Below, one piece after another: positions 16,078 through 32,691 of a DNA stretch of 64,000 nt. Numbering within the stretch: position 1 is the first letter of the stretch; the number at the start of each line of letters is the position of its first letter. The translations under genes were made by a program, and so were the position numbers. The stretch is from the IMG/VR virus record IMGVR_UViG_3300030108_000061; one strand, 5' to 3'. The notes below the pieces were generated by a model. It saw only the letters and a list, made by a program, of their open reading frames with translations, was not told where the DNA came from and did not search any database. The stretch comes from an uncultured virus (IMG/VR IMGVR_UViG_3300030108_000061) (lineage: Duplodnaviria > Heunggongvirae > Uroviricota > Caudoviricetes).

Positions 16078-16125
16078 TGTTACCTCCTTTGGCTTGGACT
16101 GTCCGACCCAATGCTATGCAGTGAG

Positions 16126-19100: not shown

Positions 19101-19707
19101 CTGCAGCAGTTATTGTCCCTGCAGCAGACACATTAGCTCCACTAAATGTAAGTGCAGTTGTAGTTCCTGATTTAATTATTAGATTGCCTGATGTATTAGT
19201 TAGTGCAGCATACTGTGTAGCATTAGCTTTAAAAAATACATCACCACCAGCAGCATCAAGCACAATATCATCTGCAGTATCAAGTATTAAATCACCAGTA
19301 TCGTTTACAATGTAAGAGTTTGTTCCACCATGATATAAATTAAGATCTTCACTTGCTCCTAATGTTATACGTCCAACAGCACTATCACCTGTAAGATCAT
19401 CTGCATCTGCATCTACCGTAATTTTAATTGTACGAATAAACATATCTTTAAATGTCAGGCTAGATGTACCTAAGTCTAATGTATTATTTGATTTAGGTGT
19501 TACTGTTGTAGCACTAACAACAAAATCTTGTGCTGGACCCAATACAGATACTGGTCCACCTTCAGCAGATGTACCATCATGTGTGTGACCACTTGTAGAA
19601 AATGCAGTTACAATGGCATCAAACTCTCCATCAAAGTCTGCAGCATTAATAACATTACCGTCAGCAATATTATTGTCTGTATCGTTTCTTGTATAACCTG
19701 TTCCCAT
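16126..19707 (-). CDS. Tail fiber protein
   Basis: N-terminal GYTR..NNIADGNVINA.D.D.EF...GHTHDG; repeated GNVGIGTxSP units; C-terminal LDHYEEGTFTP...GRYTRIG. Confidence 0.9.
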   Translation of the reverse strand: MGTGYTRNDTDNNIADGNVINAADFDGEFDAIVTAFSTSGHTHDGTSAEGGPVSVLGPAQDFVVSATTVTPKSNNTLDLGTSSLTFKDMFIRTIKITVDADADDLTGDSAVGRITLGASEDLNLYHGGTNSYIVNDTGDLILDTADDIVLDAAGGDVFFKANATQYAALTNTSGNLIIKSGTTTALTFSGANVSAAGTITAAGILKTDDATDATSTTDGSLQTDGGLSVAKDAVLGNDFKLLSDASVLSFGADSEITVTHVADTGLTITNTNTDDNKPIVIQLKSKENEITANEVIGSIEFAAGDDSGTDAATVAAGIHAIAEAEFTSSVNSTKLVFTTGASETAAASATAKMTLSSTGDLTIADDLFLDSDNAVLSFGDDGDTTLTHTDGSGLTLNSTNKIMFNDASQFIQGSSGTVLSLGATDEIDLTATDIDINGTLDVSGSAVFNTSVEVVTSDNSTQLTLKSTDADASVGPVMVFERESASAASDDEIGRILFVGRNAENNADVNYGSIETHISAAAAASAGGYMKFRVASHDGETQSGLEIRDGDAEDEVDVTIGSGTGSITNVVGALGVGTSSPTGIHSLAKVLEISGGDGGDLIIGNNASSNIGAGAHVGAIAFKNIDSSTGSVPHYAGIRSEAADTSGNMDLRFYTGIGNLEADTPQVIIDENGNMGIGTTSPAAPFHVVTSHTSTDVTAANSNETLKLTNGGVGNGIYNALSFGGNQQDMYIMSFNHATQASRRLGFFVGSVAGDATTDERLSITGDGNVGIGATSPKRLLHINGGSESVKLQITNSTTGSSSDGDGFQIGIATNGTANIEQRENAGLNITTNNTTRMTIDASGNVGIGTGTDSIAKNLEIRTDSGDEGILVKSTGDTSNEIAGDANRSSADAALLGVTGKWNGTSVAQILFQAGADTTNKDDGFITFRTSSADNIAENMRIDSSGNVSVPNGAISAGLGAGSQANDAQLTLGAAIPAMFFHDTTGGQNDAAIQVENGQIRFLTGANGNNVSDLAQKIKMHSGGDLEIVDGDLIIGTAGHGIDFSAQTATSASGATTNSEVLDHYEEGTFTPSVGSASGSGGSAGSNVGRYTRIGNRVFADFSLSVSSVGSMSGNFFIVGFPFASNSTFIQSQGAVRSQGLGGSNDIPVVFEMVNGNSFGRFHFQSGSNSQRTVQVSDVSANDFICASISYIV

Positions 19708-19711
19708 TGTT

Positions 19712-22150
19712 TTACCTTCTTGTATTTGTACCGTACTCTAATGTCACCGTGTCAAGTGAAAAAGGTGGATCTGTACTATTACTTCTAAATTGTATTGCTG
19801 TTGTAAATCCCGTACCTACTGTTTGTGTTTTAAATAAGTTTTGAACTTTACCACCAAACACAGAACCTGCATCTGTAATTCTAACATTACTTATAGTTTG
19901 TGTCAAAGCATTGCTTATAGTTATTGGTGTACTTTTAAATGTTAGATCTACATTATCAGATAATACTTGATTATTAGATAATGTAATATTATTCTGATCT
20001 GTTACAGTTGTAACTACAGTATCACTAGCCACTCCAGTTCCTGATACACCCATACCAACTGCAATTGTACCAGAGTTATTATCTAAAACTATTTCTTTTA
20101 AATTAGATTTTCCTAATGCTGCATATGCAGATAATGATACTTCTCCATTTACTTTAGCTGTTGCAGTTGTTGTTGTTCCTACGCCATCAGTATTAATAAT
20201 AGTATTACTAGGTATGCCTGTGCCTGAAATAGTATCTCCTCCTGACATATTACCAGATTCAGCAACAGTTAATGTAGTACCGCCACTAGTACCAGATCCT
20301 CTAGTAGAAAATTTAGCAAAACTATTTACACCTATAAAAGATATTTGTGAAGTTTCATTAGAAAAAGATATTGTTGCAGGTTGCACAGAGTTTAATTCAT
20401 CAAAATCAAACTTTAAATTAAAATCAAAATTAACTGCACCCTGTGGGTCTGTAAATAAATTTGCTTTGTATACAGTTTTACGAACTCTTGGATCATTTAT
20501 TGGTAAATATGGAGATAAATATTCTGCAGATATATTAGATCCATCAAAACTATTACCGTCTTCCATTTTATAAAGAAAACCATTATCACCAGAAAAAACA
20601 ATAACTTCGTTTGCACCTACCATTTTACTTGATGCAGAAAATACTTCCATGCCTCTTATTTCTGCAAATTGAAAGTCTGTGCCACCTTGAGGAGAAAACT
20701 GTGTAGCTATTACACCTTTAGCTGCAGCACCAACTTGATCAGGATTAAATGCAAACAATCTATACTGTGACTTAGCTCTAATAGTTAAACTGGTAAATAA
20801 ACTAGCAGACCTAATAAAATCACCCAAAGTAGACTGTATGGCTTTTGATATAATTCCTAAACCAAAGTCATTATTACGATCTGTAGCACTTAGTAATCTT
20901 AAACCATCTGCAGTAAGAAACATAACATCACCGCCTATTTCTTGAACGGTGTCACCATCAATACAACCTATATCTTCACTAATCGGTGCCAATGCAAAAT
21001 TAGCTAATGACGTACCTGTTATTTGTTGTATTGTTTTATCTGTAAATATTATAAGAGATTCTCTAAAAGGTATTAATGCTGTAACATTACCACCGACTCT
21101 AAAATTACCACCACCATTACCTGATGTAAAATCACTATCCAATAATGGTCCTGTAAAAGAAACTACATCTCCCTTTCCATAAAATATATGTGTTTTAAAA
21201 GTAGTTACGTGTGTCGCAGATAATACATCAGATGGAGCACCTGTAAGCTCTACAAAGCTAGTACCATCATACAATGCAGGTGGGTTAGCTCCATCAACTA
21301 TTGCAACCTTACGTGTTCCTGTAAAGTTATATTCAGCAAATCTAGTTCTACCTGCACCCTCTCTATTTAAACTTATAAATGTTACAGCAGTATTATCTGA
21401 TACATTAGCTGTTAATGCAGGACTTATAGTTAAAGTTTGTCCTCCTGTACCCCCTGCATCTGCAGTAACTGTATAAACTCTATCTATTCCAGATATAGTA
21501 AACATATCACCATTTTGAGGAGCAACTGTAAGACCATCAACTGGTAAAGAAGTAGCACCAGAGGATACAGGACTACTTGGAGAGTTTACTAATACCGTGC
21601 CATATGCAGGTACGTTTACTTTTGTAAAGCCACTACCAGATGTTTTATACAAGTCTGAGTTTAGTGCTACAATAATATCATCACCAAAAACTTCTACCCC
21701 TTGTGTTCTATAGGGTGTGCTATAAGTTTTAAATGTTATAACAGCACCATTTGCAGGACTAGATTGTAATGTAGTAGAAGTTTTTAATGTTATTTGAGTT
21801 CTATTTGTTGGAGCATCAAATGCTACACTTCCTATCTCATAAGTAGTAGTATCCCCTGCTATAGTAAAAGTATCACCTATTACAGGTGTAGTATGTGTTC
21901 TTGCTATTAATAACGTATCAGAACCAGAGGACTGTGCACCATCTACAACTGCTAGTCCGTATGGTGGTATCTTGTTAGCATCAAACTTACTAAACCCAAG
22001 TATTCTCCTATACCCACCAACAATAGATGGCTCAAAGTTTTTTAAAGTTATTGCAGATCCAGGCATATTAATACCTTGTTGCAACGGACTTATATTTGTT
22101 ACAAGCCCACCTCTAAACTCTACAGGAAACGTTTGTCGTTTAGTTGGCAT
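19712..22150 (-). CDS. Tail nozzle (tail tubular protein B-like) with inserted beta-rich domains
   Basis: GGLVTN..PL, NFEPS..GGYRRI.G and IGC....TVQEIGGD..FL..DGLR motifs; position after the adaptor. Confidence 0.75.
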   Translation of the reverse strand: MPTKRQTFPVEFRGGLVTNISPLQQGINMPGSAITLKNFEPSIVGGYRRILGFSKFDANKIPPYGLAVVDGAQSSGSDTLLIARTHTTPVIGDTFTIAGDTTTYEIGSVAFDAPTNRTQITLKTSTTLQSSPANGAVITFKTYSTPYRTQGVEVFGDDIIVALNSDLYKTSGSGFTKVNVPAYGTVLVNSPSSPVSSGATSLPVDGLTVAPQNGDMFTISGIDRVYTVTADAGGTGGQTLTISPALTANVSDNTAVTFISLNREGAGRTRFAEYNFTGTRKVAIVDGANPPALYDGTSFVELTGAPSDVLSATHVTTFKTHIFYGKGDVVSFTGPLLDSDFTSGNGGGNFRVGGNVTALIPFRESLIIFTDKTIQQITGTSLANFALAPISEDIGCIDGDTVQEIGGDVMFLTADGLRLLSATDRNNDFGLGIISKAIQSTLGDFIRSASLFTSLTIRAKSQYRLFAFNPDQVGAAAKGVIATQFSPQGGTDFQFAEIRGMEVFSASSKMVGANEVIVFSGDNGFLYKMEDGNSFDGSNISAEYLSPYLPINDPRVRKTVYKANLFTDPQGAVNFDFNLKFDFDELNSVQPATISFSNETSQISFIGVNSFAKFSTRGSGTSGGTTLTVAESGNMSGGDTISGTGIPSNTIINTDGVGTTTTATAKVNGEVSLSAYAALGKSNLKEIVLDNNSGTIAVGMGVSGTGVASDTVVTTVTDQNNITLSNNQVLSDNVDLTFKSTPITISNALTQTISNVRITDAGSVFGGKVQNLFKTQTVGTGFTTAIQFRSNSTDPPFSLDTVTLEYGTNTRR

Positions 22151-22153
22151 GGA

Positions 22154-23098
22154 TTACAATACTCTGCTTGGTAGTATCTTAGTGTTCATTGCTCCTGATG
22201 CTATAGCTGTAGAACGAACATAGTCATATCTATTAATGTAAAGAGTACGCATGTTTTTAATACCATCATCAAAAGCACTTTTTAAAATCATAGCTTCTTG
22301 TGTTTCACCTCTAAACATGTAAGCCATATACATAGCTCCATCTACAATTACATATCTAAACTGCACAGGAAGACTAGGTACATCTGTAGCTGCAGATAAA
22401 TTTGTAGGTAGCTTGTAATAATCAAACTCCAATACATATTGTTTATCAGGATATGGATACAATAAGTAATTATTATCGGGGGTTCTTACTATAGCTCTAG
22501 GCACTTCACCTTCTGTAAACTGTGTTACTACTGTGCTATTAGCTATAGTGGCTGCAGTTGTACTATTTGCACCTCTAGTACATCCTGTAAAATCGTTACC
22601 TAATATACCTGTATAGGTTATTTGTTCTGCACCTATGTGTAGTGTACCAGTAGATGTAAATCCTGTTGTTGATGCGACAGTTATTGTTGTTACAGATGCA
22701 GACAATCCAGAGGATGCATTAATAGTTGTTGATGATATGGGGTCTTCTTGATTAGCATAGTTCTTAGATATATACTCTTTGTAGTCTAATACATTTAATT
22801 TATTGCCAGTTACAGTTAGATCTGCATCTTTTTTAATTCTTGCTGTACCATAGTCTACAGACTTTGCATCTGTAGGTATAGAGTATCTTACTACACCTGC
22901 AGTTAAAGTTTTTGTTTCTGTATCATGGTTAAATGGAAAACCATATTCATGTTGATTAATATATCTTATAGATGCATTTATAGCATCCTTTACCATAGCA
23001 TACTCACCTATAGCAGAGGTAAAGTTACTAGAAGTAAGTTCAACCTCGTTTAGTCTTCTATTAACATCATTAACTAAACCTAAATAATCGTATGCCAT
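22154..23098 (-). CDS. Head-tail adaptor (tail tubular protein A-like)
   Basis: YLGLVNDVNRRLNEV, FPFN, YPYPDKQY and VIVDGAMY..Y.FRG motifs. Confidence 0.75.
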   Translation of the reverse strand: MAYDYLGLVNDVNRRLNEVELTSSNFTSAIGEYAMVKDAINASIRYINQHEYGFPFNHDTETKTLTAGVVRYSIPTDAKSVDYGTARIKKDADLTVTGNKLNVLDYKEYISKNYANQEDPISSTTINASSGLSASVTTITVASTTGFTSTGTLHIGAEQITYTGILGNDFTGCTRGANSTTAATIANSTVVTQFTEGEVPRAIVRTPDNNYLLYPYPDKQYVLEFDYYKLPTNLSAATDVPSLPVQFRYVIVDGAMYMAYMFRGETQEAMILKSAFDDGIKNMRTLYINRYDYVRSTAIASGAMNTKILPSRVL

Positions 23099-23121
23099 TT
23101 TATTTCCTTAGATCAAGCTAA

Positions 23122-23145
23122 AGGGGCCAACCTAAGTTAGCCCCT
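23122..23145 (-). terminator. Probable terminator after the capsid genes
   Basis: Minus strand AGGGGCUAAC-uuag-GUUGGCCCCU followed by a short U-rich tail. Confidence 0.6.
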
Positions 23146-23152
23146 AAAGTTT

Positions 23153-23692
23153 TTATGCGAGTAGATCACGATCCACTTCATTAGCAGAGCTAGACTGTGA
23201 TACTTCATCCAAGAGTATGCACACGGCAAACACACGAATAATACCACCAGTAATAGTTCCACTGGATGCCTGAATCTCTACATCAATAGTATCTGCTGAT
23301 GCAGTAAATGCTGGTACATTAGCAACAACACCACTTGATAAACCTGCAGGAGGAGTAATAGCTCCTGCTGAAGCTCCATCTAAGTCAAATGACGCAGCAA
23401 ACAAGTCTACGTCTGTTCCTGTAATACCAACATGAAACTCAGAGTCTGTAGTAGTACCTGCCATTGCAGTGACAACTTTGAAACCTGCATATAGGATCAT
23501 AGTGTTTGCAGGGACAGCAATAGCTTCAATGATATCATTTGCTGCTAGTGCAGTACCACCGTTTTGTAGGATAGCATCTGCAAGATCAATATCGTTCTGC
23601 AGAGTTACTAAACTTCCACGAAGCTGCTTATTGCCAGTACCGCCATTATTGGAAGTAGAGGCTGAGTTCGTGCTCATTGTAATTGTAGCCAT
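23153..23692 (-). CDS. Putative capsid decoration/cement protein
   Basis: Immediately after the MCP; small and beta-rich; RBS GGAGG. Confidence 0.6.
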   Translation of the reverse strand: MATITMSTNSASTSNNGGTGNKQLRGSLVTLQNDIDLADAILQNGGTALAANDIIEAIAVPANTMILYAGFKVVTAMAGTTTDSEFHVGITGTDVDLFAASFDLDGASAGAITPPAGLSSGVVANVPAFTASADTIDVEIQASSGTITGGIIRVFAVCILLDEVSQSSSANEVDRDLLA

Positions 23693-23706
23693 AATTCAAT
23701 CCTCCC

Positions 23707-24780
23707 TTACGCTGCGTTATACTTGGCAGTAACGATTGCTTCTGGACGAAGTATCTTCCTACCATATAGATGCATACCACGAACAATGTCAGCAAAGCTG
23801 TCAGGGTCACGATATGTTTCTGTCTTATTAATCTGCTCTGCAGTTGCAACAGCAGATTCATGTCCAGCAACTAACACTCCAAAATTTGAGTTCTGGTTAG
23901 CTGTTCCTGATGTGCCTGGGCCTGTGCCTACGGCAGGGAGGTTTGAGGATACATACAAACGGAACCCATGAAAGTTGTTGATCACTAGACCATTACGTAG
24001 TCCACCTGAATCACCATAGTCGCCATTCATGAAGCGGCTATCTTCGTCAGAAAGGATTTCCATAAATACAGGGTCAATGACAAGCCATCTCCCTTGTGTA
24101 TCAACTTGTTGTTGATCAAGCAAACGTTTCATACGTGCTACAATCATAGCAGGTGAAACAGTTGCAGTTGGAAGGGATGTGGCCCCAGGCATACGAGCAG
24201 TTACTGGAATCGAATGATCGCCAGCAGATGTCGTAGTGATGTTACCAAAATCACCCTTCTTTAGTTTCATGCTTGAAAGCAGTTCATCATCACCTGCGGT
24301 CAAAACAGCTTTTTCACCACTTGCGGTATCATTTGCTGTATCTGCTTTTGCATGTAATGCTGACTGTTTAAAGCCTGACATGTAGCCAAGAACTTCTTGG
24401 TCATACTGATCAGCTAGGCGATAAGCTGCACGATCTGTTGCCAGATCCATGAAGTTCACGTGACTGTGTGCCTCTTCGATGTCATCCATCTTAAAAGCAA
24501 AGTAGTTACTTTTGTCAACTACCAATGTGAAATCTTCATCATCCAAGTCTTGTGCAGTGACAGTTGTGCCACGTGTGTAAGACTGAACTGAGATTTCAGG
24601 TTCTTTGATAATACGAACAGTATCACCTTGAGCAGAAATCTCCCCAAAATAATCTGAGTTCGTAATATCCCCAACAGTAGCAGACTTGCGAAATGCAAGC
24701 TGTACCTGTTTGGAATAGATTACAGGACTAAAATTACCGTTAGGTAAGTTCCCATAACCCGATGCTGATGAAAAAGCCAT
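23707..24780 (-). CDS. Major capsid protein
   Basis: NLPNGNFSPVIYSK, ITNSDYFGEI..QGDTVRIIKEP and E.YRDPDSFADIVRG.HLYG.K.LRPEA motifs; RBS AGGAGG. Confidence 0.92.
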   Translation of the reverse strand: MAFSSASGYGNLPNGNFSPVIYSKQVQLAFRKSATVGDITNSDYFGEISAQGDTVRIIKEPEISVQSYTRGTTVTAQDLDDEDFTLVVDKSNYFAFKMDDIEEAHSHVNFMDLATDRAAYRLADQYDQEVLGYMSGFKQSALHAKADTANDTASGEKAVLTAGDDELLSSMKLKKGDFGNITTTSAGDHSIPVTARMPGATSLPTATVSPAMIVARMKRLLDQQQVDTQGRWLVIDPVFMEILSDEDSRFMNGDYGDSGGLRNGLVINNFHGFRLYVSSNLPAVGTGPGTSGTANQNSNFGVLVAGHESAVATAEQINKTETYRDPDSFADIVRGMHLYGRKILRPEAIVTAKYNAA

Positions 24781-24816
24781 GATATAATCCTCCTATAAGT
24801 TTGGCTTCACTATGAG

Positions 24817-24976
24817 CTAAACATATTAAGTAGAGGCTGATTGATCTAATAGGGTGCATACTCCACTGATTGGCCTATCAGTATTGTACGGGCCTATACA
24901 CAAACAGGTAAGTCTTTTTGTTTAGGCTAATATTAAGTATAAATGTTAAAAGGTAGACCATTCGGTGGCTTTTAAC
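24817..24976 (-). ncRNA. Structured 5' leader of the MCP mRNA (putative cis-regulatory RNA)
   Basis: One hairpin (24945-24976) and one long stem (24817-24925) carrying three CC / C(U)nAC internal loops; folded by hand. Confidence 0.6.
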
Positions 24977-24989
24977 TAGTATACATATA

Positions 24990-25017
24990 GTTATACTGTA
25001 AAATTTTTATTTGTCAA
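24990..25017 (-). promoter_or_regulatory. Promoter for the MCP operon
   Basis: TTGACA-N16-TATAACTATA on the minus strand. Confidence 0.75.
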
Positions 25018-25024
25018 CAGTATT

Positions 25025-25882
25025 TTATCGTGCAGACCCAGACATGTCATAAACAAATTTTCCAGATCTAATTGACTCCATGATAGCATCTGCAGCTTTT
25101 TCATATTGCTGCGCTGTCATTTTGGCAACTTGCGATTCTTTAAACGAACCTGATTTATCTTCTGTCTCAGGCTCATTGTTACTTGTTCTTTTATTTACAG
25201 AACGAGCGGCATCTTTTCCATTAACTTTTTTAGTGGGTTTAATATTACGATCTGCTTTATACAAGTCAATTGCTCTTGCTGCAGACCTTGCATCTGTATC
25301 ATTTTCATACAATGCATCTTGTACCCACTTAGGCTGTTCTTCTGCCCACTCATGAAAATCGTCACTCTCTCTAATCTCTCCAAAATCAGGGTGAGCTTTC
25401 ATAAGTTCTACCTCTGCTTTTTCACGAGATGCAGTAGCACGTAATTGATCTATTTCCTTTACTTTATCTTCTAATCCTGCAGATTGTTCTCTAGCTTTTT
25501 TAATTGCAATAGTTTCTACAATAGCTGCAACATCAGGATGTTGTTTTGCCCAAGCATCAATATCTTCATCTGACTTAGGTAATTTTATCTCTTTACGTGT
25601 TACCTCTTGTAACTGACCCTCAAGGGTTTTAAATTTTTCTTCCCAATCTTTTTCTTTTTGTTGCATATGGCGACGAAGATCACCATATCGTTTTTTAAAA
25701 CTTTTTTCTTCTGGACTAGTAGGTTCCTCTTCTTTAACCTCTTCTGTAGTAGCTTCTTTACGATCCTTAAGAAGTTCTTTTAGTTCCTGTTCATCGTTTT
25801 CTATCCTGTCTAAATTAGCATTTTTTCTATTCATAAATGCAACTTTTTTTGGTTCTTCTTTAATCATTACTGCTTCAGTCAT
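25025..25882 (-). CDS. Capsid scaffolding protein (start reassigned to ATG 25882)
   Basis: Charged coiled coil, FKKRYGDLRRH, HPDF..I..S..F..W; directly upstream of the MCP; RBS AGAGGA precedes MTEAVM. Confidence 0.8.
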   Translation of the reverse strand: MTEAVMIKEEPKKVAFMNRKNANLDRIENDEQELKELLKDRKEATTEEVKEEEPTSPEEKSFKKRYGDLRRHMQQKEKDWEEKFKTLEGQLQEVTRKEIKLPKSDEDIDAWAKQHPDVAAIVETIAIKKAREQSAGLEDKVKEIDQLRATASREKAEVELMKAHPDFGEIRESDDFHEWAEEQPKWVQDALYENDTDARSAARAIDLYKADRNIKPTKKVNGKDAARSVNKRTSNNEPETEDKSGSFKESQVAKMTAQQYEKAADAIMESIRSGKFVYDMSGSAR

Positions 25883-25895
25883 TTTATTTCCTCTA

Positions 25896-25940
25896 ACTGG
25901 GGCCACCGTAGCCATGTTGGATGGGGGATGAGTAGCCAGC
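25896..25940 (-). ncRNA. Hairpin in the scaffold-gene leader (putative cis-regulatory RNA)
   Basis: GCUGG-CUAC-UCAUC-CC-CCAU-ccaac-AUGG-CUAC-GGUGG-CC-CCAGU, ending just before the RBS. Confidence 0.6.
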
Positions 25941-25952
25941 GTATATAGCAGA

Positions 25953-28181
25953 TTACTTACGTGCTGCTATGCCACGATTCTTGGGGGTAACTTTTTTCTT
26001 TTTAGATCTACTTACAAGACCACCTTCTTTAAAACCATAACCTCCTACGTATCCTTTACCTGCCATTTGCCCTGCTTGAACTGCTCTTTTTTGTCTATCA
26101 GCATCAATACGATCAGCTACAGCCCTTGCCTGTGCTGCAGATGCTTGTCCTCCTGCTACAGATTTTTGAGTTAGTGCTGCATTTTGTCTTGCTCTTGTTA
26201 TATCTGCAGCAGATGTTCTGTCCCTATCTGTTCTACCTCTTTCACCAAAATCTATGGGGGCTGTTGGTGCTGATGGTCCTGCTGGTGCAGGAGTAAAGCT
26301 ATCTATACCTGCAGGTTCTGTTGCAAATGTTGGTGGTGGTGCGACAGGTGTTGCAGTAGCTGCAGGTGGTGCTACAGTTGTTGGAGTAAATCCTCTATCT
26401 GTTTCTTGTCTTGCACGTATAGTTCTTTCAAATTTATCTATCTCATAGTTAGAATAGCCTTCTGCTTCTAAATCTGCTTTAGTATATGTGCCTTTTATGC
26501 TTGCTAGTCTAGCTGCAGCACTTGCTATATCTTCTTCTTTTTGCGCTGTAGATGGTGTTGTTTCATCAACAGTAGTTGCAGTAGCTGCAGGTGGCGCAGT
26601 AAGATCTAAACTAATAGGATCAAATCCTCTAATAGATGTTTCTCCATAGAACTCAGGTTCTGTAGGTTTACCTGCTGTAGCTACCACTGTTTGTAAAGAT
26701 GCCTGTACAGCATCAGCATCAGCACTTTGCAAACTACCTATTACAGAGGTAGTAGGAACACCTAATACTTGAGGTCTAATTGGAGTACCTGCCTCTATAC
26801 CTGCTTTTAAAATATCAGATACGGGTCTACCCATCTCATAATCAGCCACTGTTTGCATAGCTCTAGGCAGTAGTGATCCTTTAGGATCAAACCCTTCATC
26901 TGTAGTAATTTTTATAACACCCTCATTCTTAGCAGTTCCATCTTTTTCATTATTATTCTCATCTGATGCATATTCAATAGCAGCAGTTGTTGCTGCCTCT
27001 GTATCTTCTTTATTTAAACTTAATGCACTTGAAACATCTTTAATTACATCATTTATTAATCCAATAGCAGCCATTCCAAGGCCACCACCTTTTTCTGTTT
27101 TTTCTTTTAATGTAGCTAATTCTTCTTTCAAATCATCTAGCTTACCAGCATCTTTCATTTTGTTTACAAAAGTTTGATCATTTTTTATTTTATCTTGTAA
27201 TTTTTCAAGCGTGTTTATTTTATTCATACGCATCATAGCTGCAGAGGCTAATCCAAAAGCAGGATTAATTACACTAGCAATAGCTACAAATACATTTCCT
27301 ACAGAGCTATTAATCTTTCCTACTTCGTTTACTATTTCTTCTGCACTTGCTGCATCGTAATCAAAAGGCTTTGGTGGGGGAAGTGGATCACGATCATTAT
27401 CATCTCGAACACTTGTAGTAGGTGTTGTAGTAGGATCAGTTGTTACATCATCAGTATCGTCTGATATTTCATCTCCCTCTTGATAAGGTATATAACCATC
27501 TGGAATTGGCGTTATAGGATTGCCTTTATAAAAAGTAAACTTTCTTATATCGCCAGTTTCTGGATTGTAGTACTCTACTTCGTAATAATCTAAAAGTTGA
27601 TTTGCTGTAACTACTGGCTTTGGAGATCCTGTAACTGTTTCATAATTTACACCTTGTTCTACAAATGCAGGTCTGTATCCTGATGTAGTTGTCTGCCCTG
27701 TATTATAAGTTATAGGTCTAAAAGAACTTGCAGGGGGAGTATATGTAGGAATATTTGCAGGTGGATTTGAATACACAGAGGGTCTAGTAATTAATGTACC
27801 TGCTTGCGCTTTAACTACCCCACCAGTATATTTTTTCTTAGGCTTTTGTTTTGGCTCTCCTATAATAATTAAATCAGCCATATCAAACGGAAGATCATCA
27901 GGTATAATAGCCTCATCAGAATTACCCATCTGACCCATAGCTTCCATCTTTTTTAAGCCCATCTTAGCATCTTGTCTTAACTGCATTAATTTATCAAGAC
28001 CAATATAACGAACTACATCTTCTGGAAAAACAAACTCACCTTCACTTATCATAGCAGGTATATCATCACGTACACCTTTTTTAGTTCCCCCTATAGGAAC
28101 TTTATTACCAGACACTTCATCTATTTCACCACCCTCATCTTCAAGGCCACCTTTACGAAATAAATCTAATTGCTGTTCCAT
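25953..28181 (-). CDS. Head-module protein of unknown function (conserved N-terminal domain, low-complexity remainder)
   Basis: DDIPAMISEGEFVFPEDVVRYIG domain; located between portal and scaffold; P/T/A-rich C-terminal half. Confidence 0.7.
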   Translation of the reverse strand: MEQQLDLFRKGGLEDEGGEIDEVSGNKVPIGGTKKGVRDDIPAMISEGEFVFPEDVVRYIGLDKLMQLRQDAKMGLKKMEAMGQMGNSDEAIIPDDLPFDMADLIIIGEPKQKPKKKYTGGVVKAQAGTLITRPSVYSNPPANIPTYTPPASSFRPITYNTGQTTTSGYRPAFVEQGVNYETVTGSPKPVVTANQLLDYYEVEYYNPETGDIRKFTFYKGNPITPIPDGYIPYQEGDEISDDTDDVTTDPTTTPTTSVRDDNDRDPLPPPKPFDYDAASAEEIVNEVGKINSSVGNVFVAIASVINPAFGLASAAMMRMNKINTLEKLQDKIKNDQTFVNKMKDAGKLDDLKEELATLKEKTEKGGGLGMAAIGLINDVIKDVSSALSLNKEDTEAATTAAIEYASDENNNEKDGTAKNEGVIKITTDEGFDPKGSLLPRAMQTVADYEMGRPVSDILKAGIEAGTPIRPQVLGVPTTSVIGSLQSADADAVQASLQTVVATAGKPTEPEFYGETSIRGFDPISLDLTAPPAATATTVDETTPSTAQKEEDIASAAARLASIKGTYTKADLEAEGYSNYEIDKFERTIRARQETDRGFTPTTVAPPAATATPVAPPPTFATEPAGIDSFTPAPAGPSAPTAPIDFGERGRTDRDRTSAADITRARQNAALTQKSVAGGQASAAQARAVADRIDADRQKRAVQAGQMAGKGYVGGYGFKEGGLVSRSKKKKVTPKNRGIAARK

Positions 28182-28187
28182 TATAAG

Positions 28188-28412
28188 TTACTCACTTTTT
28201 AAAACCTCATCACGCAGTAATTTTAATCTACGTAGTTGATATATTGCACCTTGTGCTCTATACATTATTTGAATATTGTCTGTCTGTTCTATATTACGAT
28301 GCTGCTGTTCAATAAGCATATCTAAATATTTACTGAACTGGTCCCATTGCTTCTGGTTGCTCACCAGCCCCTTCAGCTTGTTGAGGTGCTCCTTGTTGTT
28401 GTTCATTACCAC
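28188..28412 (-). CDS. Small conserved post-portal protein
   Basis: YRAQG....LRRLK.LRDEV pattern; overlaps the portal 3' end. Confidence 0.65.
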   Translation of the reverse strand: MVMNNNKEHLNKLKGLVSNQKQWDQFSKYLDMLIEQQHRNIEQTDNIQIMYRAQGAIYQLRRLKLLRDEVLKSE

Positions 28413-30468
28413 TAAATCCTTGTTCTTGCGGTGTTGGTGCTTGTCCTGTGCCTATAGTGCCACCCCCTGCTCCTGTCGGGTCTGCAGGGTCAGCACCTGC
28501 TGGTGCTTGTTCAGGTTGCTGTTGTTGAAAACCTTTCATTAGTTCTGCTTGTAATGCAGCTTCATCCATATTATTAGTTACTTTATCTGGGTCAAGATCA
28601 AGAGACTTTGCAATCTCTCTAATAATATATTGAAACTTAGCAAATGGTGCTAAAGCTGGACTAGAGGCAATTTGCATAAACTGCATTAATCTTTGACTAC
28701 GTACTTCATTAGCCATAAGACTTTCTGTACCACGTGCCTTTACTTCTAAATCCCCTTTTATTTCTGGGTCGTAATCAAATTGCATATTAAATCTAAATAA
28801 ACCCTCACCAAGAGGGCGTAATAAATAGTCATCTACATTTTTAATTACGTTTTTTATACCGCCTTGAGCAGCACCCATAAGCATACTGATACCAGAAGCA
28901 GTACGGCCCACACCACTGACGCCTGTTTGACCATGTGCAAAAGATGGGAATCCAGTTGATTCATCTGCTAATACCCTCGCTTTATCAAATAGTTGCAAAT
29001 TTTCTGCGGCAACATTAGGAAACTTTGTGCCAAAGATAGCTTGACCTGGAGCACCACCTTGTCTCCTAAATATCTTGCCTGGATATACACTAAGGTCTTG
29101 GCCTGGGACTAAATTAGTTTCATCTACCTCTATAAGAAGATTACCTGATAGCACAGCATTATCTACCGCCATACGCATGAACCCATTCATAAGAGTCTGT
29201 GTATCATCCATATTTTCTGCTATGCCTACCCCAAAGAATGAATAAGGATTTAATTCATACGGTGCAGCCATATATGGGATATTAGCAGGTTTAAATGGAT
29301 TAAGAACCATACGCAATAATTTGCCGTTACAAATCCAAATATTCGCTTGTAACTCATCTACATCTTGTAAGTCATCTGGTATATCTACGCCTTGCTCTAA
29401 AAGCATAGCAGTATCTGCTGTACCCCAATATTCTAAAACCTCATAGCGATATGTGCCATAGTCAGACATATAATCTTCTAGGTCATTTTCCCAATATTCT
29501 TTTTGATAATTTTCACCTAGTTCTATTGCTTCTTCAATAACTGTAGGTCTAAAATAAGGTCTGCGCTTTAATGCACGTAATTGTGAGCGAGACATCTTAT
29601 GCCTTTCAATTACATACTGTGCCTCTTCTATATTAATAGCATCAGGATCAGGATAAAAGTTCCACACAGAAACATGTGATACTTGTGGTATAGTTTTTAT
29701 TAAAGGAGAATATTCACCTGTTTCATCCCAATTAGGATATTCTTTATCAATAGCAAATGGCCCCTTCATCACACCAGTTCCAAATAGCGCCATTTCAAAC
29801 GCTGTACTACGTAAATGTTTACTAGCTCCAGATTCCTCTAGTTGATCGTGTATCTTTTTTTGCATCATTTTAGCCGCCACCATAGCAGGGCTAAATGTAA
29901 TTGAAGTAGGTGTTTTACCTACGCCTTCACGTAATCCTTCAATATCACCTAGTTTATCTTTTAGTGGCCCTAAACTTTCTAATAAAGTTTTTTGTGTTGC
30001 TCCTGCTGGCAAATCATTGCCATCTCCCTTAAATCCATATGGGCTAACAGGATCATTTATAGTATTCTCTTTTAATTGTTCTGGTTCTTTAGGGTCGAAG
30101 TTAACATCTGCAACTACGCCATCAGGTAATTCTGTTGGATCTACTGTTAATGGAAACTTTTGACTTGCAAATAATACATCTACAATTTGACCATATGCTG
30201 CAAGTGTTTTTGTTTTAGTTACCTTAATAAATACTCTTGACCTTTCTGCCTCTGTAAACTGAACGTCAGGGCCATATAAACCTCTATAATTTCTATAAGC
30301 TCTTAGCCAACGATGCTCGTCTTGTTGCCTAGATGTTTCTGCACGATTATATCGTTCCATAACATATGGAATAATATTAGATGTCTCATAGTCCTCTGTA
30401 GCAGAATCCTCACTATCCGCTAAGACAACTGCATCATCCTCTATAAAACCTTGATCATTATCTTCCAT
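28330..30468 (-). CDS. Portal protein
   Basis: RWLRAYRNYRG, SRVFIKVTKTK, FGTGVMKGP and RTASGISML motifs; follows the terminase. Confidence 0.9.
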   Translation of the reverse strand: MEDNDQGFIEDDAVVLADSEDSATEDYETSNIIPYVMERYNRAETSRQQDEHRWLRAYRNYRGLYGPDVQFTEAERSRVFIKVTKTKTLAAYGQIVDVLFASQKFPLTVDPTELPDGVVADVNFDPKEPEQLKENTINDPVSPYGFKGDGNDLPAGATQKTLLESLGPLKDKLGDIEGLREGVGKTPTSITFSPAMVAAKMMQKKIHDQLEESGASKHLRSTAFEMALFGTGVMKGPFAIDKEYPNWDETGEYSPLIKTIPQVSHVSVWNFYPDPDAINIEEAQYVIERHKMSRSQLRALKRRPYFRPTVIEEAIELGENYQKEYWENDLEDYMSDYGTYRYEVLEYWGTADTAMLLEQGVDIPDDLQDVDELQANIWICNGKLLRMVLNPFKPANIPYMAAPYELNPYSFFGVGIAENMDDTQTLMNGFMRMAVDNAVLSGNLLIEVDETNLVPGQDLSVYPGKIFRRQGGAPGQAIFGTKFPNVAAENLQLFDKARVLADESTGFPSFAHGQTGVSGVGRTASGISMLMGAAQGGIKNVIKNVDDYLLRPLGEGLFRFNMQFDYDPEIKGDLEVKARGTESLMANEVRSQRLMQFMQIASSPALAPFAKFQYIIREIAKSLDLDPDKVTNNMDEAALQAELMKGFQQQQPEQAPAGADPADPTGAGGGTIGTGQAPTPQEQGFSGNEQQQGAPQQAEGAGEQPEAMGPVQ

Positions 30469-30480
30469 TAGTTTTCCTTA

Positions 30481-32055
30481 TTAATATCCAAACACTGAAT
30501 CTGCAACTTGCATCCCTTGTGATGGTACGCCCATGGGATCATAATCAAATATACTAAATCGTGGTCTTGACATTATACCGTATCTTAGTGCATCGTACAA
30601 GTGATCTTCTGATGCGGTATCAATATCTTCAGGATTCTTTTTATCAATAGGCAAAGCTGGCAATTGAGATATTAGATTTGTACAAGTATTAAAAAATACT
30701 AATCTAGGTTCTTCTGTAAACTCATCCACCTGCAAACGTCTGTGTACTTCATTTTTTCCTGCAACTCTAGAGCCTTTTGATCTATCAGAGGGACGCCATC
30801 TACATCCTCTTATAATCATCTGTTCAGCAAGAGTAGGACCAGTATCGCCCCTACGATGCCACAAAGAAGAATCCAAAACTCCATATTTAATATTTCCATC
30901 TCCTGCCTCTAGATCTAGCACCATATCCGCTAAATCTGTAGCAAGAATTTTACTTACGTATAGTTCTCTGTAAACAACTAACTGCTCACTTGGAGATACT
31001 GCAAACCAAATCACCCCTGATTTACTACCATAACCATAGTCACAAGCTCTAAACTTTACCCAATTATTAGGTATATCATATGGCTCTACTACATGTATCT
31101 TTCTATCAAACTCTGTAAACGCTGCACCTTCTTTAATATCCCAATCACCGTCTAGTAACTGTCTACGTTGTTGTTCAGGCAACGATAGTAGCATTGCCTC
31201 ATAGTCACCTTGATTGGCTAGGTAAGGATTATCGGTAAGACGGGCAGGTATAAACCTACGCTTGAATAAAGGTTTGCCAGCTTTCGCATGTCCAGCAGGA
31301 TAACGTAAAACCTCACCCGTTTCAATATCCGTAGCATTAAAAGACTCTCCATGCGGTGCAGGATCAATAAACATTTTTTTGACCCAATGATGGCCCCGAC
31401 CTCCTGGGTTAGTAGTTGCCCTCATGTATACGGGCAGGTCGGGTGCAGTGGACCGTAGACGTGATCTCATGTAGTTCCACGAAAAGGGTGAAGGCCACTG
31501 AGTTAACTCGTCAAAGCCTATCCAGCTAAATGCTAGACCTTGGTATCGCAGGACGTCATCTTCCCTGTCTAGGTAGGACATCCACAATCTCGCACCAGAG
31601 GGCGCGGTCCACTGCATTTTTCGTTCAGACCACTTAATACCTTTCCAAATCTTAGGGTACATCTCCTGTGATTTAAATATAAGTTCTCTAAGTTCTTCTG
31701 TGGTATGACGTAAAAGTAACCCTGAAAAATCTGGATGTCCCATATATCGTAGAGGATCAGCTAACATTGCGTATGACTTACCACCACCAGCCGAACCACC
31801 ATATAATACTTCACGTTCACCTGCTGCAAGAAAGTCTGTCTGGGGGCCATCGTTAGGTTTAAAAACTACGTTGTGCTGTTCTTCTACAGGTATTTCAGTT
31901 AATATAGTGTTAGGCTGCGTCTGCGCTGTCCTCTTTCTTTTTACTGTCGATTCTTTTTTGTTCAAGGGCTTCCGCTTTGGCGATTGCCTTTTTCGCATAT
32001 TCTGCCCATCTGCGTAGGCTTCTAGCTTTGTTGTTCCTTGTTCGCTCATTATCAA
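30481..32055 (-). CDS. terL: Terminase large subunit (exact start uncertain)
   Basis: Walker A YGGSAGGGKS, Walker B IGFDE, ATTNPGG, nuclease-domain DYG and DHLYDALRY. Confidence 0.95.
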   Translation of the reverse strand: MIMSEQGTTKLEAYADGQNMRKRQSPKRKPLNKKESTVKRKRTAQTQPNTILTEIPVEEQHNVVFKPNDGPQTDFLAAGEREVLYGGSAGGGKSYAMLADPLRYMGHPDFSGLLLRHTTEELRELIFKSQEMYPKIWKGIKWSERKMQWTAPSGARLWMSYLDREDDVLRYQGLAFSWIGFDELTQWPSPFSWNYMRSRLRSTAPDLPVYMRATTNPGGRGHHWVKKMFIDPAPHGESFNATDIETGEVLRYPAGHAKAGKPLFKRRFIPARLTDNPYLANQGDYEAMLLSLPEQQRRQLLDGDWDIKEGAAFTEFDRKIHVVEPYDIPNNWVKFRACDYGYGSKSGVIWFAVSPSEQLVVYRELYVSKILATDLADMVLDLEAGDGNIKYGVLDSSLWHRRGDTGPTLAEQMIIRGCRWRPSDRSKGSRVAGKNEVHRRLQVDEFTEEPRLVFFNTCTNLISQLPALPIDKKNPEDIDTASEDHLYDALRYGIMSRPRFSIFDYDPMGVPSQGMQVADSVFGY

Positions 32056-32326
32056 GCCGCTTCCTTAATCCTACATGAGAAATATACCTACCTGTATTTT
32101 TAGATAGCCAGTTAGCAACTTCACGATATGAATATTGCTTTAAATATTTCTTAGCCTGTTGTAACTTATCTAGCTGGTCGGGTATAGGTGCTAGAACATC
32201 ATTATCTTCAGGGTGTAGTTCATAGCCAAACGGGACAGTTCGTGCGATGCGAGGGATTTCTATCCACTCATTGTCTTCTTGTATATCTGTTGGTTGAGGT
32301 AATTTCCAACGTCCTGTTTTAATCAA
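31910..32326 (-). CDS. Putative HTH DNA-binding protein in the packaging module
   Basis: RTVPFGY and YSYREVANWL...GRYISHVGLRKR. Confidence 0.6.
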   Translation of the reverse strand: MIKTGRWKLPQPTDIQEDNEWIEIPRIARTVPFGYELHPEDNDVLAPIPDQLDKLQQAKKYLKQYSYREVANWLSKNTGRYISHVGLRKRLDNERTRNNKARSLRRWAEYAKKAIAKAEALEQKRIDSKKKEDSADAA

Positions 32327-32691
32327 TCTTCTTCTACCTGTTTAGGTGGCATAAGCATAACTCCACCCTTTGCTTCCACTTGCATTTTCTCTGTCTTAAC
32401 AAGACCTGTGCGGTCTAACAACTCTTTTGCTGCTTGCATCTTATCACGTATACCTAACTCTGTTGGGTCCATTAGTGCTCCTACCATTGCAACTGCTGCA
32501 CGTGGTGCATTACGTGACATATACATTTGTGTAGCTTCAAGTATCTCTTCTTTTAAACTATTAACAATGTGTGTAGTAGATGTAGTCTCAGCATAGCCAG
32601 CTAGTTTTTTAGCTTGAGCCACACTACCTGCTGCCTGATCAAACAATGCATCTAAAAACTTTTGTTGTTGTTCTGTTAATTTTCTAGCCAT
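32323..32691 (-). CDS. Putative terminase small subunit
   Basis: LTEQQQKFLD..F...A...AGY N-terminus, AAKELLDRTG, C-terminal LMPPK. Confidence 0.6.
   Translation of the reverse strand: MARKLTEQQQKFLDALFDQAAGSVAQAKKLAGYAETTSTTHIVNSLKEEILEATQMYMSRNAPRAAVAMVGALMDPTELGIRDKMQAAKELLDRTGLVKTEKMQVEAKGGVMLMPPKQVEED

Follow-up and report, generated by a model that had tools for sequence, protein, structure and literature searches.

The major capsid (coat) protein gene of an uncultured tailed phage, found on a 64,000-nucleotide stretch of DNA (the window), is preceded on the minus strand by a region that appears to fold into an elaborate RNA leader. The questions raised by this locus are whether the fold is real and how it might serve head-protein expression. 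The element occupies positions 24808–24980, with a sigma-70-type promoter on one side and the coat gene on the other. It comprises two hairpins over about 175 nt, of which P1 is short and P2 to P6 is long and irregular, and these carry three asymmetric internal loops in which CC is opposite C(N)AC. The coat protein shares 78.7% identity with its counterpart in Roseobacter phage CRP-9.

The fold was drawn by hand in a first-pass annotation. Each stretch that it named is present on the minus strand where it had been placed, as checked against the window sequence. The first hairpin, GUUAAAAG-CC-ACC-GAAU-GGU-CUAC-CUUUUAAC, is at 24976–24945. The outer helix of the long hairpin, CUAAACA/UGUUUAG, is at 24925–24919 and 24823–24817. 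The second loop has AGA-CUUAC-CUG (24915–24905) opposite CAG-CC-UCU (24839–24832), the third has AUAGG-CC-CGUAC (24897–24886) opposite GUAUG-CAC-CCUAU (24861–24849), and the cap helix ACUGAU/AUCAGU is at 24882–24877 and 24870–24865. The element was said to start just after a promoter, and TTGACA, 16 nt and TATAAC (25017–24990) are indeed just upstream; it was also said to end about 25 nt before the ribosome binding site (RBS), where GGAGG is 21 nt past the last helix.

Table 1. Positions of leader, promoter and gene features in the window
Feature	Position	Strand	Evidence
Sigma-70-type promoter of the coat transcript	TTGACA 25017–25012, 16-nt spacer, TATAAC 24995–24990	-	sequence
P1 hairpin, loop module 1 (CC 24968–24967 opposite CUAC 24956–24953)	24945–24976	-	fold, RNAalifold, covariation
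P2 5′ strand, AG-C-CUAAACA, one bulged C	24919–24928	-	helix covariation
P3 5′ strand AAAGA, module 2 long strand CUUAC (24912–24908), P3b CUG	24905–24917	-	covariation, loop invariance
P4 5′ strand UAGG, module 3 short strand CC (24892–24891), P5 5′ strand CGUAC	24886–24896	-	loop invariance, covariation
P6 hairpin, tip loop AGGCCA (24876–24871) with self-complementary GGCC	24865–24882	-	loop covariation
P5 3′ strand GUAUG, module 3 long strand CAC (24856–24854), P4 3′ strand CCUA	24850–24861	-	loop letter counts
P3b 3′ strand CAG, module 2 short strand CC (24836–24835), P3 3′ strand UCU	24832–24839	-	CC in 99/99; helices 4 and 5
P2 3′ strand UGUUUAGCU, end of the conserved element	24815–24823	-	covariation; covariance-model match
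Pre-start region: AAGCCAAAC (24807–24799; near-copy of the P2 5′ strand), GGAGG (24793–24789), coat ATG (24780–24778)	24778–24807	-	sequence
Major capsid (coat) protein gene, 357 aa	23707–24780	-	phrog_267 major head protein, E-value = 1.1e-62
Scaffold-gene leader hairpin, two nested modules	25897–25939	-	loop scan; conserved, covarying helices
Scaffold leader, outer module	CUAC 25935–25932 with CC 25902–25901	-	sequence
Scaffold leader, inner module	CC 25926–25925 with CUAC 25911–25908	-	sequence
Probable scaffold gene and RBS AGAGGA (25894–25889)	25025–25894	-	gene order; phrog_13678, function unknown

Comparative support for the coat-gene leader

The window sequence, taken singly, gives no support to the fold: its folding energy has a z of only −1.32 (16 of 200 shuffled sequences fold as well), and the long stem is not the minimum free energy fold, which retains P1 and the P5–P6 tip and is without P2, P3 and P4. 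Nor is the loop pattern diagnostic when taken alone, since a loose pattern of loop plus helices occurs 21 times in the window and a mean of 13.1 times in 30 shuffles (range 6–22). It is the comparative evidence that establishes the leader structure.

RNAalifold on plain MAFFT alignments recovered P1, however the rest was a spurious invariant GGC/GCC pairing. This approach was replaced by a hand-set structure and a covariance model, which was built from 65 relatives and followed by re-alignment. The model matches the window at 24808–24980 with 123 bits. A coat-gene query matched more than 600 viral contig stretches. At all 100 of the loci chosen, and in 63/80 and 69/80 further viral contigs, the element immediately precedes the coat gene in the sense orientation. 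The matches are very divergent and range over 31–155 bits. The element is present in Roseobacter phages CRP-1, -3, -9, -345 and -603, and also in Puniceispirillum phage HMO-2011 and a freshwater podovirus; the covariance-model search found none in two related Pelagibacter phages. Phages of the HMO-2011 type infect abundant marine Alphaproteobacteria, i.e. SAR116 and Roseobacter RCA strains.

Among 99 distinct relatives, 87.2% of the paired cells are complementary (60.1% in shuffles) and the covariation score is 0.579, compared with 0.174 in shuffles (reached by 0 of 500) and 0.05–0.12 with slid partners. Compensatory changes are found at 42 of the 43 base pairs of these sequences, in an alignment that was fitted to the model and hence leans towards structure; a register-fixed count, which allows no alignment freedom, agrees with the covariation result. 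The covariation in the coat-gene upstream regions of relatives, which the first-pass annotation proposed as a check, is in favor of the fold.

Individual helices display the same behavior. Helices 1 and 2 of P1 are 88.8% and 91.6% paired in the 99 relatives, and position k2 of the outer P1 helix is AU in 44, UA in 7, GC in 7 and CG in 7 of 65 sequences. P2 (helix 3) is 82.6% paired and has changes on both sides at 9/9 pairs. The P3b CUG/CAG helix covaries (GC 67, AU 27, GU 4, UA 1, n = 99), and in P5 there is a compensatory change at 5/5 pairs.

The element was described as unfamiliar, and no Rfam 15 match was found in 24781–25024 or 25880–25960 at E-values up to 10. The literature matches listed contain nothing on RNA structure in HMO-2011-type phages.

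The promoter is also a recurrent feature. A strict TTGACA plus TATAAC pattern is present in 50/87 distinct relatives, and the remaining subgroups listed have their own sigma-70-like or extended −10 hexamers before the coat leader. P1 starts 5–21 nt past the −10 hexamer in 50 of the 51 relatives with a strict-pattern promoter. In four RNA libraries, contigs connect the leader with the coat coding sequence, and two of these (X17, 24552–24951, and X18, 24740–24962) cross the whole long hairpin unbroken. Two contigs extend to 24995 and 24998, i.e. 13–16 nt beyond the predicted start on its upstream side, and may reflect read-through or DNA carry-over. No start site, strand or level is derivable from these contigs, and gaps in their cover of the scaffold gene are meaningless.

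Loop modules in the coat and scaffold leaders

In each loop, which a G-C pair closes, CC faces CAC, CUAC or NCUAC on the opposite strand. The loops are thus of size 2x3, 2x4 or 2x5 and are flanked by covarying helices; in the coat leader the paired modules are 13–16 nt apart. The CC is found in 99/99 leaders in modules 2 and 3 and in 93/99 in module 1, where the other six are alignment gaps. The long strand of module 2 ends in AC in 99/99. That of module 3 is C84/U13, A87/U12, C87/A12, and that of module 1 is C73/U15, U74, A91, C90 (n = 99 for both). The GG of P4 that precedes the module 3 CC is present in 95–99 of the 99. The early observation that the helices differ while the loop is retained therefore extends to the 99 relatives, i.e. 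loop letters are fixed where flanking helices covary.

Between modules 2 and 3, about half of the leaders, not including that of the window, have an internal AGUA/GAA loop, which we take to be similar to the sarcin-ricin motif. It was dropped as a core feature.

The open reading frame upstream of the coat gene is probably a scaffold gene, as judged by gene order, i.e. its position between portal-side genes and the coat gene. Its likely start is the ATG at 25882–25880 and not the position 25915 given by the ORF finder, as aligned with relatives. The same loop was said to occur twice before this gene, and two nested CC/CUAC loops are present there. The loop, single or as a nested double, recurs across the clade in 102/112 distinct relatives, 47 of which have the nested second module; in the nested leaders listed a helix of 3 or 5 bp precedes the inner module. 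The helices covary (CCAGC/GCUGG, UCAGC/GCUGA, CUUCAC/GUGAAG, CCGG/CCGG) and the hairpin ends 12–21 nt before the scaffold ATG. No promoter was seen directly upstream of this copy of the loop. Among the 14 intergenic regions of the minus-strand structural gene block, the loop is confined to the coat and scaffold leaders. If it is one module in each case, a single phage would use this candidate three-dimensional module five times, at two genes.

A self-complementary tip loop

The P6 tip loop, a feature that was overlooked in the first-pass annotation, occurs in seven versions (GGCC, GCGC, GUAC, GAUC and others), each of them self-complementary. A self-complementary 4- to 6-mer is found in a predicted loop of 68/96 leaders, compared with 23.9 (sd 4.2) when shuffled; P1 loops with a self-complementary core number only 7/99. 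Of the 43 canonical P6 hairpins, 42 have complementary letters at loop positions 8:11 and all 43 at positions 9:10, with 13 double changes. The 3′ flank of the core is A in at least 90% of these hairpins and the 5′ flank varies (A, C or U).

Maintenance of self-complementarity through sequence change suggests RNA–RNA kissing dimers, and from this pattern two coat leaders probably pair loop to loop. Pairing of the P6 GGCC with the GGCC at module 3 was considered and rejected, as module 3 stays GGCC (99/99) where the tip loop shifts to GUAC, GAUC, etc. Six leaders (L033, L049, L051, L060, L076 and L080) are without P6, and the automatic fold of 28/96 leaders has no palindromic loop, several of these 28 being misfolds. 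Thus dimerization cannot be essential everywhere.

Proposed function and comparison with known systems

The reading we tentatively prefer, at somewhat short of an even chance, is that the loops are C-loop-type modules that bind one shared trans-acting factor controlling both the coat and scaffold genes, and that the coat leaders also dimerize. Host RNA polymerase would make a dedicated coat mRNA from the sigma-70-type promoter and the 5′ leader of this mRNA would fold, with the P6 tip loop pairing two leaders into a dimer. The shared factor at the loops would most likely be a protein, whether one of phage morphogenesis or one that the alphaproteobacterial hosts have in common, and its binding would couple the translation, or the mRNA lifetime, of the two genes. 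The scaffold-gene site abuts the RBS, so that a factor bound to the hairpin would block initiation. The last module of the coat leader is about 40 nt upstream of the RBS, and simple steric repression is therefore not obvious there; we infer the direction of control, as we do the factor and its binding. Module spacing differs between the coat and scaffold leaders, thus one rigid dimer could not bridge both. The initial proposal of a repeated protein-binding RNA module stands with respect to the repeat, which is real, has fixed letters and is set in covarying helices; the protein that would bind it and its role in setting the capsid-to-scaffold ratio are putative, and Pfam scans of 60 window proteins found no RNA-binding domain. 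In a more specific version, which we consider rather doubtful, a capsid-assembly protein (scaffold or coat) would bind the C-loops of a self-dimerizing coat leader and also the scaffold hairpin, and unassembled protein would feed back on both translations. If true, one of the most abundant podophage groups of the ocean would have a defined set of RNA operators that ties head-protein stoichiometry to assembly. For phages that have a near-consensus host promoter and no RNA polymerase of their own, the leader would be a mutable handle on the timing and balance of head proteins, and it is a compact candidate for structure determination.

An element acting as RNA only, i.e. a leader that stabilizes the coat mRNA at its 5′ end or enhances translation, with loops that are architectural parts of a compact or dimeric fold, would explain the conservation equally well, though on balance we think it unlikely. 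P1 is close to the −10 hexamer, as expected for a protective 5′ hairpin, the Pfam result fits, very high expression is needed for both genes, and the tip loop points to RNA–RNA contacts under selection. C-loops are also described as raising helical twist (PMC9516175). However an invariant loop in triplicate is more than a stabilizer needs, and invariant unpaired letters across such divergent leaders are more typical of a recognition site. The minimal loop hairpin abutting the scaffold RBS, with no promoter seen directly upstream, is also left unexplained. Cleavage of both hairpins by host RNase III or a different endoribonuclease, directed or limited by the loops, appears improbable. T7-like phages have intergenic RNase III processing sites, and the present hairpins are likewise between genes of a polycistronic block. 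They display long coaxial helices broken by asymmetric internal loops, paired modules have a two-fold symmetry in which each strand reads long loop, helix, CC, and a host enzyme would exist in all hosts. The coat leader, however, has its own promoter immediately upstream, so there is no upstream message to separate; the RNA-library contigs span the long hairpin unbroken, although partial cleavage would be compatible with them, and to our knowledge RNase III does not require fixed loop letters.

Visual inspection shows terminator-like hairpins in the interval from the element to the RBS in several subgroups, and these have a bearing on two further possibilities. A riboswitch-like leader, in which the long hairpin would bind a small molecule or ion as an aptamer and the P2 or P3 3′ strand would re-pair to free or hide the RBS, is quite improbable. 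The large conserved domain with invariant unpaired letters and the terminator-like hairpins would suit it, as would the pairing of GUUCUUCU with the RBS in CRP-3-type leaders (−10.4 kcal/mol) and the near-copy of the P2 5′ strand before the RBS in window-type leaders. Such an expression platform is attractive by eye in three subgroups but is not above shuffles overall: pairing of the P2 3′ strand with downstream sequence has a mean z of −0.11 in 99 leaders, with 6% below −1.64. Moreover the one-module scaffold hairpin is too small for a typical aptamer, Rfam gives no match, and we know of no riboswitch architecture with a threefold repeat of one loop. Phage HK022 put RNAs bind host RNA polymerase as nascent transcripts and cause terminator read-through. 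A put-like role in the long late operon would be in keeping with two stem-loop domains that directly follow a host-type promoter and lead about 18 kb of structural genes on the same strand, in a phage which, from the 60 proteins scanned, has no RNA polymerase of its own, and with the terminator-like hairpins that follow the element in some subgroups. This role is nevertheless very improbable: the scaffold copy of the loop abuts an RBS outside a promoter context, and the likeness to described antiterminator RNAs is one of context and domain layout. A scan of positions 14000–33000 gave 13 terminator-like sites compared with 10.3 expected (sd 3.0), no excess, beside the hairpins seen by eye in some subgroups. 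The least probable of the alternatives is an assembly RNA, i.e. the leader or a processed form of it as a cofactor of head assembly or packaging that oligomerizes by its loops and binds capsid proteins. The size of about 175 nt, the location among head genes and the self-complementary tip loop are in agreement with this, and phi29 prohead RNA oligomerizes by a 4-bp loop–loop contact (PMC7357161). Yet a single palindromic loop yields dimers and not rings, according to the same source, the leader is continuous with the coat coding sequence in RNA-library contigs, and there is no terminator or processing-site evidence for a free RNA.

With respect to a shared factor at the loops, the closest likeness is to the C-loop, an RNA–protein binding site described as having two cytosines around an accessible adenine, with a variant that has a one-nucleotide insertion (PMC2952876, PMC9516175). 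Published examples are in rRNA helices, in the E. coli thrS operator and in a viroid loop bound by VIRP1, and the motif has been reported from an operator with a part in the translational control of a bacterial mRNA (PMC9516175, PMC2952876). The term C-loop-like used in the first-pass annotation fits these sequence-level descriptions. Both are asymmetric internal loops in a hairpin stem, and the C-loop long strand, with an initial C and two cytosines around an adenine, is matched by CAC and, with one inserted nucleotide, by CUAC. Differences are that the phage short strand is always CC, that there are three copies in one leader and that the loop is present again at a second gene. The C-loop is defined by two base triples with flanking Watson-Crick pairs, and the phage loops are likened to it by sequence alone.

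A catalogue of structured RNAs from IMG/VR, the same data source, also describes covarying intergenic structures upstream of phage genes and names five candidates upstream of one major capsid protein family (PMC10690425). These are 29–151 nt in length and are given with no mechanism in the published description, on which the comparison with the present leader is based (PMC10690425).

The tip loop is similar to the palindromic kissing loop of the HIV-1 dimerization initiation site, as described in a review, in its self-complementary core and unpaired purine flanks; kissing-loop cores likewise change between lineages and stay self-complementary (PMC7357161). The HIV-1-type core is of 6 nt and is in a viral genome, whereas the P6 core is of 4 nt (6 in some leaders), is in a phage mRNA leader and belongs to a predicted dimer. 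The abstract, passages and homodimer table of the review list no natural dimer among bacterial-virus mRNAs (PMC7357161). P6 represents a clean covariation signal for intermolecular loop–loop pairing in such an mRNA.

The layout of the scaffold-leader hairpin is that of a small operator hairpin at an RBS. Phage proteins bind hairpins of this type at the MS2 coat–replicase site and at the T4 RegA and gp32 sites. The MS2 and T4 operators are read at a tip loop or bulge, whereas the phage leaders have an internal loop that is multiplied in a larger leader at a second gene. The gene arrangement is that of P22, a podovirus that also has the scaffold-then-coat order and a P22-type coat protein (PF11651 is found on the HMO-2011 coat protein). 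Free P22 scaffolding protein reportedly lowers its own synthesis post-transcriptionally, in work by Casjens and Adams and by Wyckoff and Casjens (both 1985), and we know of no defined RNA operator described for this autoregulation. In P22 the scaffolding protein is the reported regulator, whereas in the present phages the RNA is defined and the binder is putative.

The coat leader and its surroundings

The coat leader, which consists of the hairpin P1 and a long irregular hairpin (P2-P6), is located in the 244-nt gap that separates the end of the probable scaffold gene, so named from gene order, from the start of the coat gene. When the sequence was re-read, the helices, loops and coordinates of the first-pass annotation were all found to be correct, with the element directly after the promoter; its end, placed there about 25 nt before the ribosome binding site, is 21 nt from GGAGG as measured from the last helix.

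Features of the coat and scaffold region and of the rest of the window
Feature	Position	Strand	Remarks
Coat (major capsid) gene	start 24780	minus	357 aa; phrog_267 major head protein, E = 1.1e-62
Coat ribosome binding site	24793-24789	minus	GGAGG
Coat leader	24808-24980	minus	P1 and P2-P6
Coat promoter	25017-24990	minus	TTGACA, 16-nt spacer, TATAAC; read from the sequence
Probable scaffold gene	ends 25025	minus
Scaffold leader, nested modules	25939-25897	minus	followed by AGAGGA, then ATG
Scaffold ATG, likely start	25882-25880	minus	behind AGAGGA
Metatranscriptome contig X15	24645-24795
Metatranscriptome contig X16	24667-24814
Metatranscriptome contig X17	24552-24951
Metatranscriptome contig X18	24740-24962
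Window-identical contigs	24845-24995; 24852-24998
Strong 10-bp hairpin	23099-23152		AGGGGCUAAC / GUUGGCCCCU, loop UUAG; no clear U-tract
ORF after coat gene	23153-23692		179 aa; no family match
Na+/Pi-cotransporter family ORF	34693-35124	minus	143 aa; PF02690, E = 1.8e-16
Tyrosine integrase	44931-46067	plus	PF00589, E = 7.5e-16
Similar window ends	9-5046; 51808-56845		88.6% identical over 5 kb
Further weaker matches	5671-6031; 10841-11324

In the window sequence alone, the leader structure does not exceed chance. Only P1 and the P5-P6 tip are retained in the minimum-free-energy fold, which lacks P2, P3 and P4 of the long stem. The folding z is -1.32, with 16 of 200 shuffles folding equally well, and for a loose loop pattern (GCC, helix, C(N)ACC, flanked on either side by three pairs) the window has 21 occurrences vs a mean of 13.1 (range 6-22) in 30 shuffles.

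A sigma-70-like promoter is present just upstream of the coat leader in every subgroup printed. The strict TTGACA/TATAAC pattern is found in 50 of 87 relatives, and the others printed are extended -10 types. Conservation of the non-consensus last base of the -10 hexamer (window positions 24990-24995 and relatives) is unusually rigid: of the 51 relatives that fit the strict pattern, 50 have TATAAC instead of TATAAT and 48 keep the spacer at 16 nt. No phage RNA polymerase was found among 60 window proteins scanned with Pfam. In four metatranscriptome libraries, contigs link the leader with the coat coding sequence, and two window-identical contigs cover the long hairpin together with P1 and extend slightly upstream of the predicted transcription start; the contigs are uninformative on transcript ends, strand and level.

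Two features are located in the stretch from the element to the ribosome binding site of the coat gene. The sequence AAGCCAAAC (24799-24807), 6 nt before the site, is a near-copy of the P2 5′ strand AGCCUAAAC and could pair with the P2 3′ strand in its place, a feature confined to the window-like subgroup. CRP-3-like and other subgroups (leader loci L083, L094, L104-L112, L128 and L162) display an extra G+C-rich hairpin and a U-rich run, terminator-like by eye.

The strong hairpin between the 179-aa open reading frame and the adaptor gene may stabilise the mRNA 3′ end, or may act as a weak terminator and so set the ratio of coat to tail transcripts. An annotated methyltransferase gene directly follows the coat gene in CRP-9 (L081 3118-3651); in CRP-345 (L082 1-609) one lies two genes ahead of the scaffold gene. 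The Na+/Pi-cotransporter open reading frame is possibly a fragment of a phage-carried auxiliary gene for phosphate uptake, and the integrase gene adjoins replication genes, thus the phage may be temperate. The similarity of the window ends indicates that the window is longer than a single genome (about 51.8 kb) and that the overlap comes from a related, non-identical variant; the window is either a concatemer-like or a chimeric assembly of two strains.

Conservation and covariation among relatives

A search with the coat protein gave 80 viral contigs with coat proteins 81-96% identical, and their upstream regions comprise 65 distinct leaders of 187-262 nt that display conserved blocks between variable stems. 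Pairs were counted outward and inward from fixed letters, i.e. without alignment freedom. By this count the outer P1 position k2 is paired in 65 of 65 leaders (AU 44, UA 7, GC 7, CG 7), and changes are also present at the inner P1 position k1 (CG 49, UA 16), in the CUG/CAG helix beside module 2 (CG 42, UA 15) and in the helix outside module 3 (AU 58, UA 7).

A covariance model (180 positions, 43 pairs), with the structure set on a trimmed alignment, has a single match in the window, the coat leader (123 bits). Roseobacter phages CRP-9 (137.6 bits), CRP-3 (55.6), CRP-345 (54.5) and CRP-1 (47.4) also match, always directly upstream of the coat gene, as do CRP-603 (48.5), Puniceispirillum phage HMO-2011 (47.2) and a freshwater podovirus genome (40.6). 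Weak matches are seen in Rhizobium phage RHph_N3_13 (20.4 bits, E = 0.034), Sinorhizobium phage phiM6 (19.2, E = 0.058) and CRP-738 (15.8, E = 0.25), and none in Pelagibacter phages HTVC033P and HTVC115P or Aeromonas phage 1233. In the contig sets collected with the CRP-3 and CRP-1 coat proteins the element is found at 63 of 80 and 69 of 80 loci (E up to 0.01), counts that take in contigs irrespective of whether upstream DNA is present.

From these matches 100 loci were picked for diversity (six from the initial 80, 40 from the 63, 49 from the 69, four cultured phages and the window). All matched again and gave 99 distinct rows when aligned to the model. Standard pairs occupy 87.2% of cells compared with 60.1% in shuffles. 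Covariation in homologs, to which the first-pass annotation had looked for support of its fold, is clear: 42 of the 43 pairs have changes on both sides, and the score of 0.579 (shuffled 0.174; slid partners 0.05-0.12) is reached by none of 500 shuffles. This alignment is fitted to the model and favours structure, and the anchor-based count is an independent check.

The element had not been recognised as a described one, and Rfam 15 likewise has no match in the coat or scaffold leader, even at E up to 10. Among the papers listed by literature searches on RNA structure in HMO-2011-type phages, none dealt with these phages, and among those listed for kissing loops in phage mRNAs none was relevant. 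A 2023 catalogue of 8,495 candidate structured RNAs of 29-151 nt, drawn from IMG/VR intergenic regions, mentions five that precede genes of a major capsid protein family (PMC10690425), and part of the coat leader may already be listed there without analysis. As far as checked, no description exists of the repeated module, of its occurrence at both genes or of the self-complementary tip loop.

The loop modules and the scaffold leader

Modules 1, 2 and 3, asymmetric loops with CC opposite C(N)AC, are one and the same module. The unpaired letters are held in the 99 rows while the surrounding helices change, as had been noted among the three copies in the one sequence. In module 2, CC is present in 99 of 99, and in as many the long strand ends in AC. 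Module 3 has CC in 99 of 99 and a long strand of CAC or UUAC (C84/U13, A87/U12, C87/A12). In module 1, CC is found in 93 of 99, the remainder being alignment gaps, with a long strand of C73/U15, U74, A91, C90. On the side with G before CC and with C after AC, the module is closed by a G-C pair. The orientation of module 2 is reversed, with the long strand on the 5′ side. About half of the leaders (L003-L078; columns 123-133 and 204-215 of the leader alignment) display AAGUA opposite GAAAA in the internal loop that separates modules 2 and 3, which we take to resemble a sarcin-ricin or loop-E type motif; the window has UGUGUA opposite AUUAGA.

The loop had also been noted twice before the scaffold gene, and the window does have two nested modules there, CUGG-CUAC-UCAUC-CC-CCAU-CCAAC-AUGG-CUAC-GGUGG-CC-CCAG. 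The outer module is found in 102 of 112 distinct scaffold-upstream regions (long strand CUAC 87, CCUAC 7, CCAC 5, CGAC 2, UUAC 1) and a nested second module in 47. The ten unparsed regions comprise two that have the element and a misjudged start, three mislocated, one variant and four of one subgroup with a plain hairpin. The neighbouring helix covaries (CCAGC/GCUGG, UCAGC/GCUGA, CCAGGAA/UUCCUGG, CUUCAC/GUGAAG, CCGG/CCGG, UCGC/GCGA), and the distance from the end of the structure to the ATG is 12-21 nt, which puts that end at the ribosome binding site. The scaffold start listed in the table is likely the correct one, since alignment with relatives places it there; the ORF-finder ATG (25915) falls inside the conserved hairpin. 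As in modules 2 and 3, the nested modules have a two-fold layout in which each strand reads long loop, helix, CC; the spacing before the inner module is a helix of 3 or 5 bp in the nested scaffold leaders printed vs 13-15 and 13-16 nt in the coat leader. Of 14 intergenic regions in the minus-strand gene block of the window, these two leaders alone contain the loop.

The P6 tip loop and possible function

The apical loop of P6 is self-complementary, with lineage-specific cores (GGCC, GCGC, GUAC, GAUC, UGAUCA, AGCU, UGCA). Automatic folding places such a core in a hairpin loop in 68 of 96 leaders, compared with 23.9 (sd 4.2, maximum 40) in 200 rounds of loop-letter shuffling; among the 28 misses are several misfolded loops that do contain GGCC, GUAC or UGAUCA. 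The same test on P1 loops gives 7 of 99. Of 44 canonical 6+6+6 P6 hairpins, 43 were aligned and one with a shifted register was left out. Complementarity is seen in 42 of 43 at loop positions 8:11 and in 43 of 43 at the adjacent positions 9:10 (GC 30, UA 8, CG 3, AU 2; 13 double changes), and the 3′ flank of the core is A in at least 90%. Because adjacent letters of a six-letter loop cannot pair together, the simplest reading is that the tip loop would pair between two RNA molecules. A DNA-level function does not explain a sequence that changes with self-complementarity retained. The flanking letters break the DNA palindrome, thus the core does not simply follow from the stem; nor is it universal, since some leaders lack P6.

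The modules of the two leaders are tentatively read as operator sites for one shared factor, to which somewhat less than an even chance is given. This is suggested by the fixed loop letters, the description of the module elsewhere as a protein site, its reuse at two head genes and the minimal copy that abuts the ribosome binding site. The two genes are those required in the largest, balanced amounts. The factor would recognise the modules in both leaders; the scaffold or coat protein would be a natural candidate by analogy with phage P22, whose scaffold protein reportedly autoregulates, and a host protein that the alphaproteobacterial hosts have in common is just as possible. No RNA-binding domain was found in the 60 window proteins scanned with Pfam. 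Dimerisation through P6, if it occurs, would double the sites per particle.

It is unlikely that the leaders act as RNA only, as a stabiliser or enhancer, and more doubtful that they are sites for an endoribonuclease. A riboswitch is less probable again, as the alternative pairing expected of it is no better than in shuffles (mean z -0.11). A put-like antiterminator, for which a terminator scan gave 13 sites vs 10.3 expected, has a slight chance, and an RNA with a role in assembly the slightest.

With respect to the preferred reading as operator sites, the module had been called C-loop-like. The sections on this motif in PMC9516175 and PMC2952876 describe the C-loop as an asymmetric internal loop within a hairpin stem, the long strand of which starts with C and has two multiply paired cytosines that flank an accessible adenine. 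One published C-loop, for which strands of 8 and 6 nt are given, would agree with a 2x4 loop, judging from its coordinates. The name holds at the level of sequence, where the leader modules agree with these descriptions, and the base triples that define a C-loop lie beyond such a comparison. The P6 tip loop, as predicted, is like the palindromic kissing loops with purine flanks that are treated in the pertinent part of a review (PMC7357161) in having a self-complementary core.
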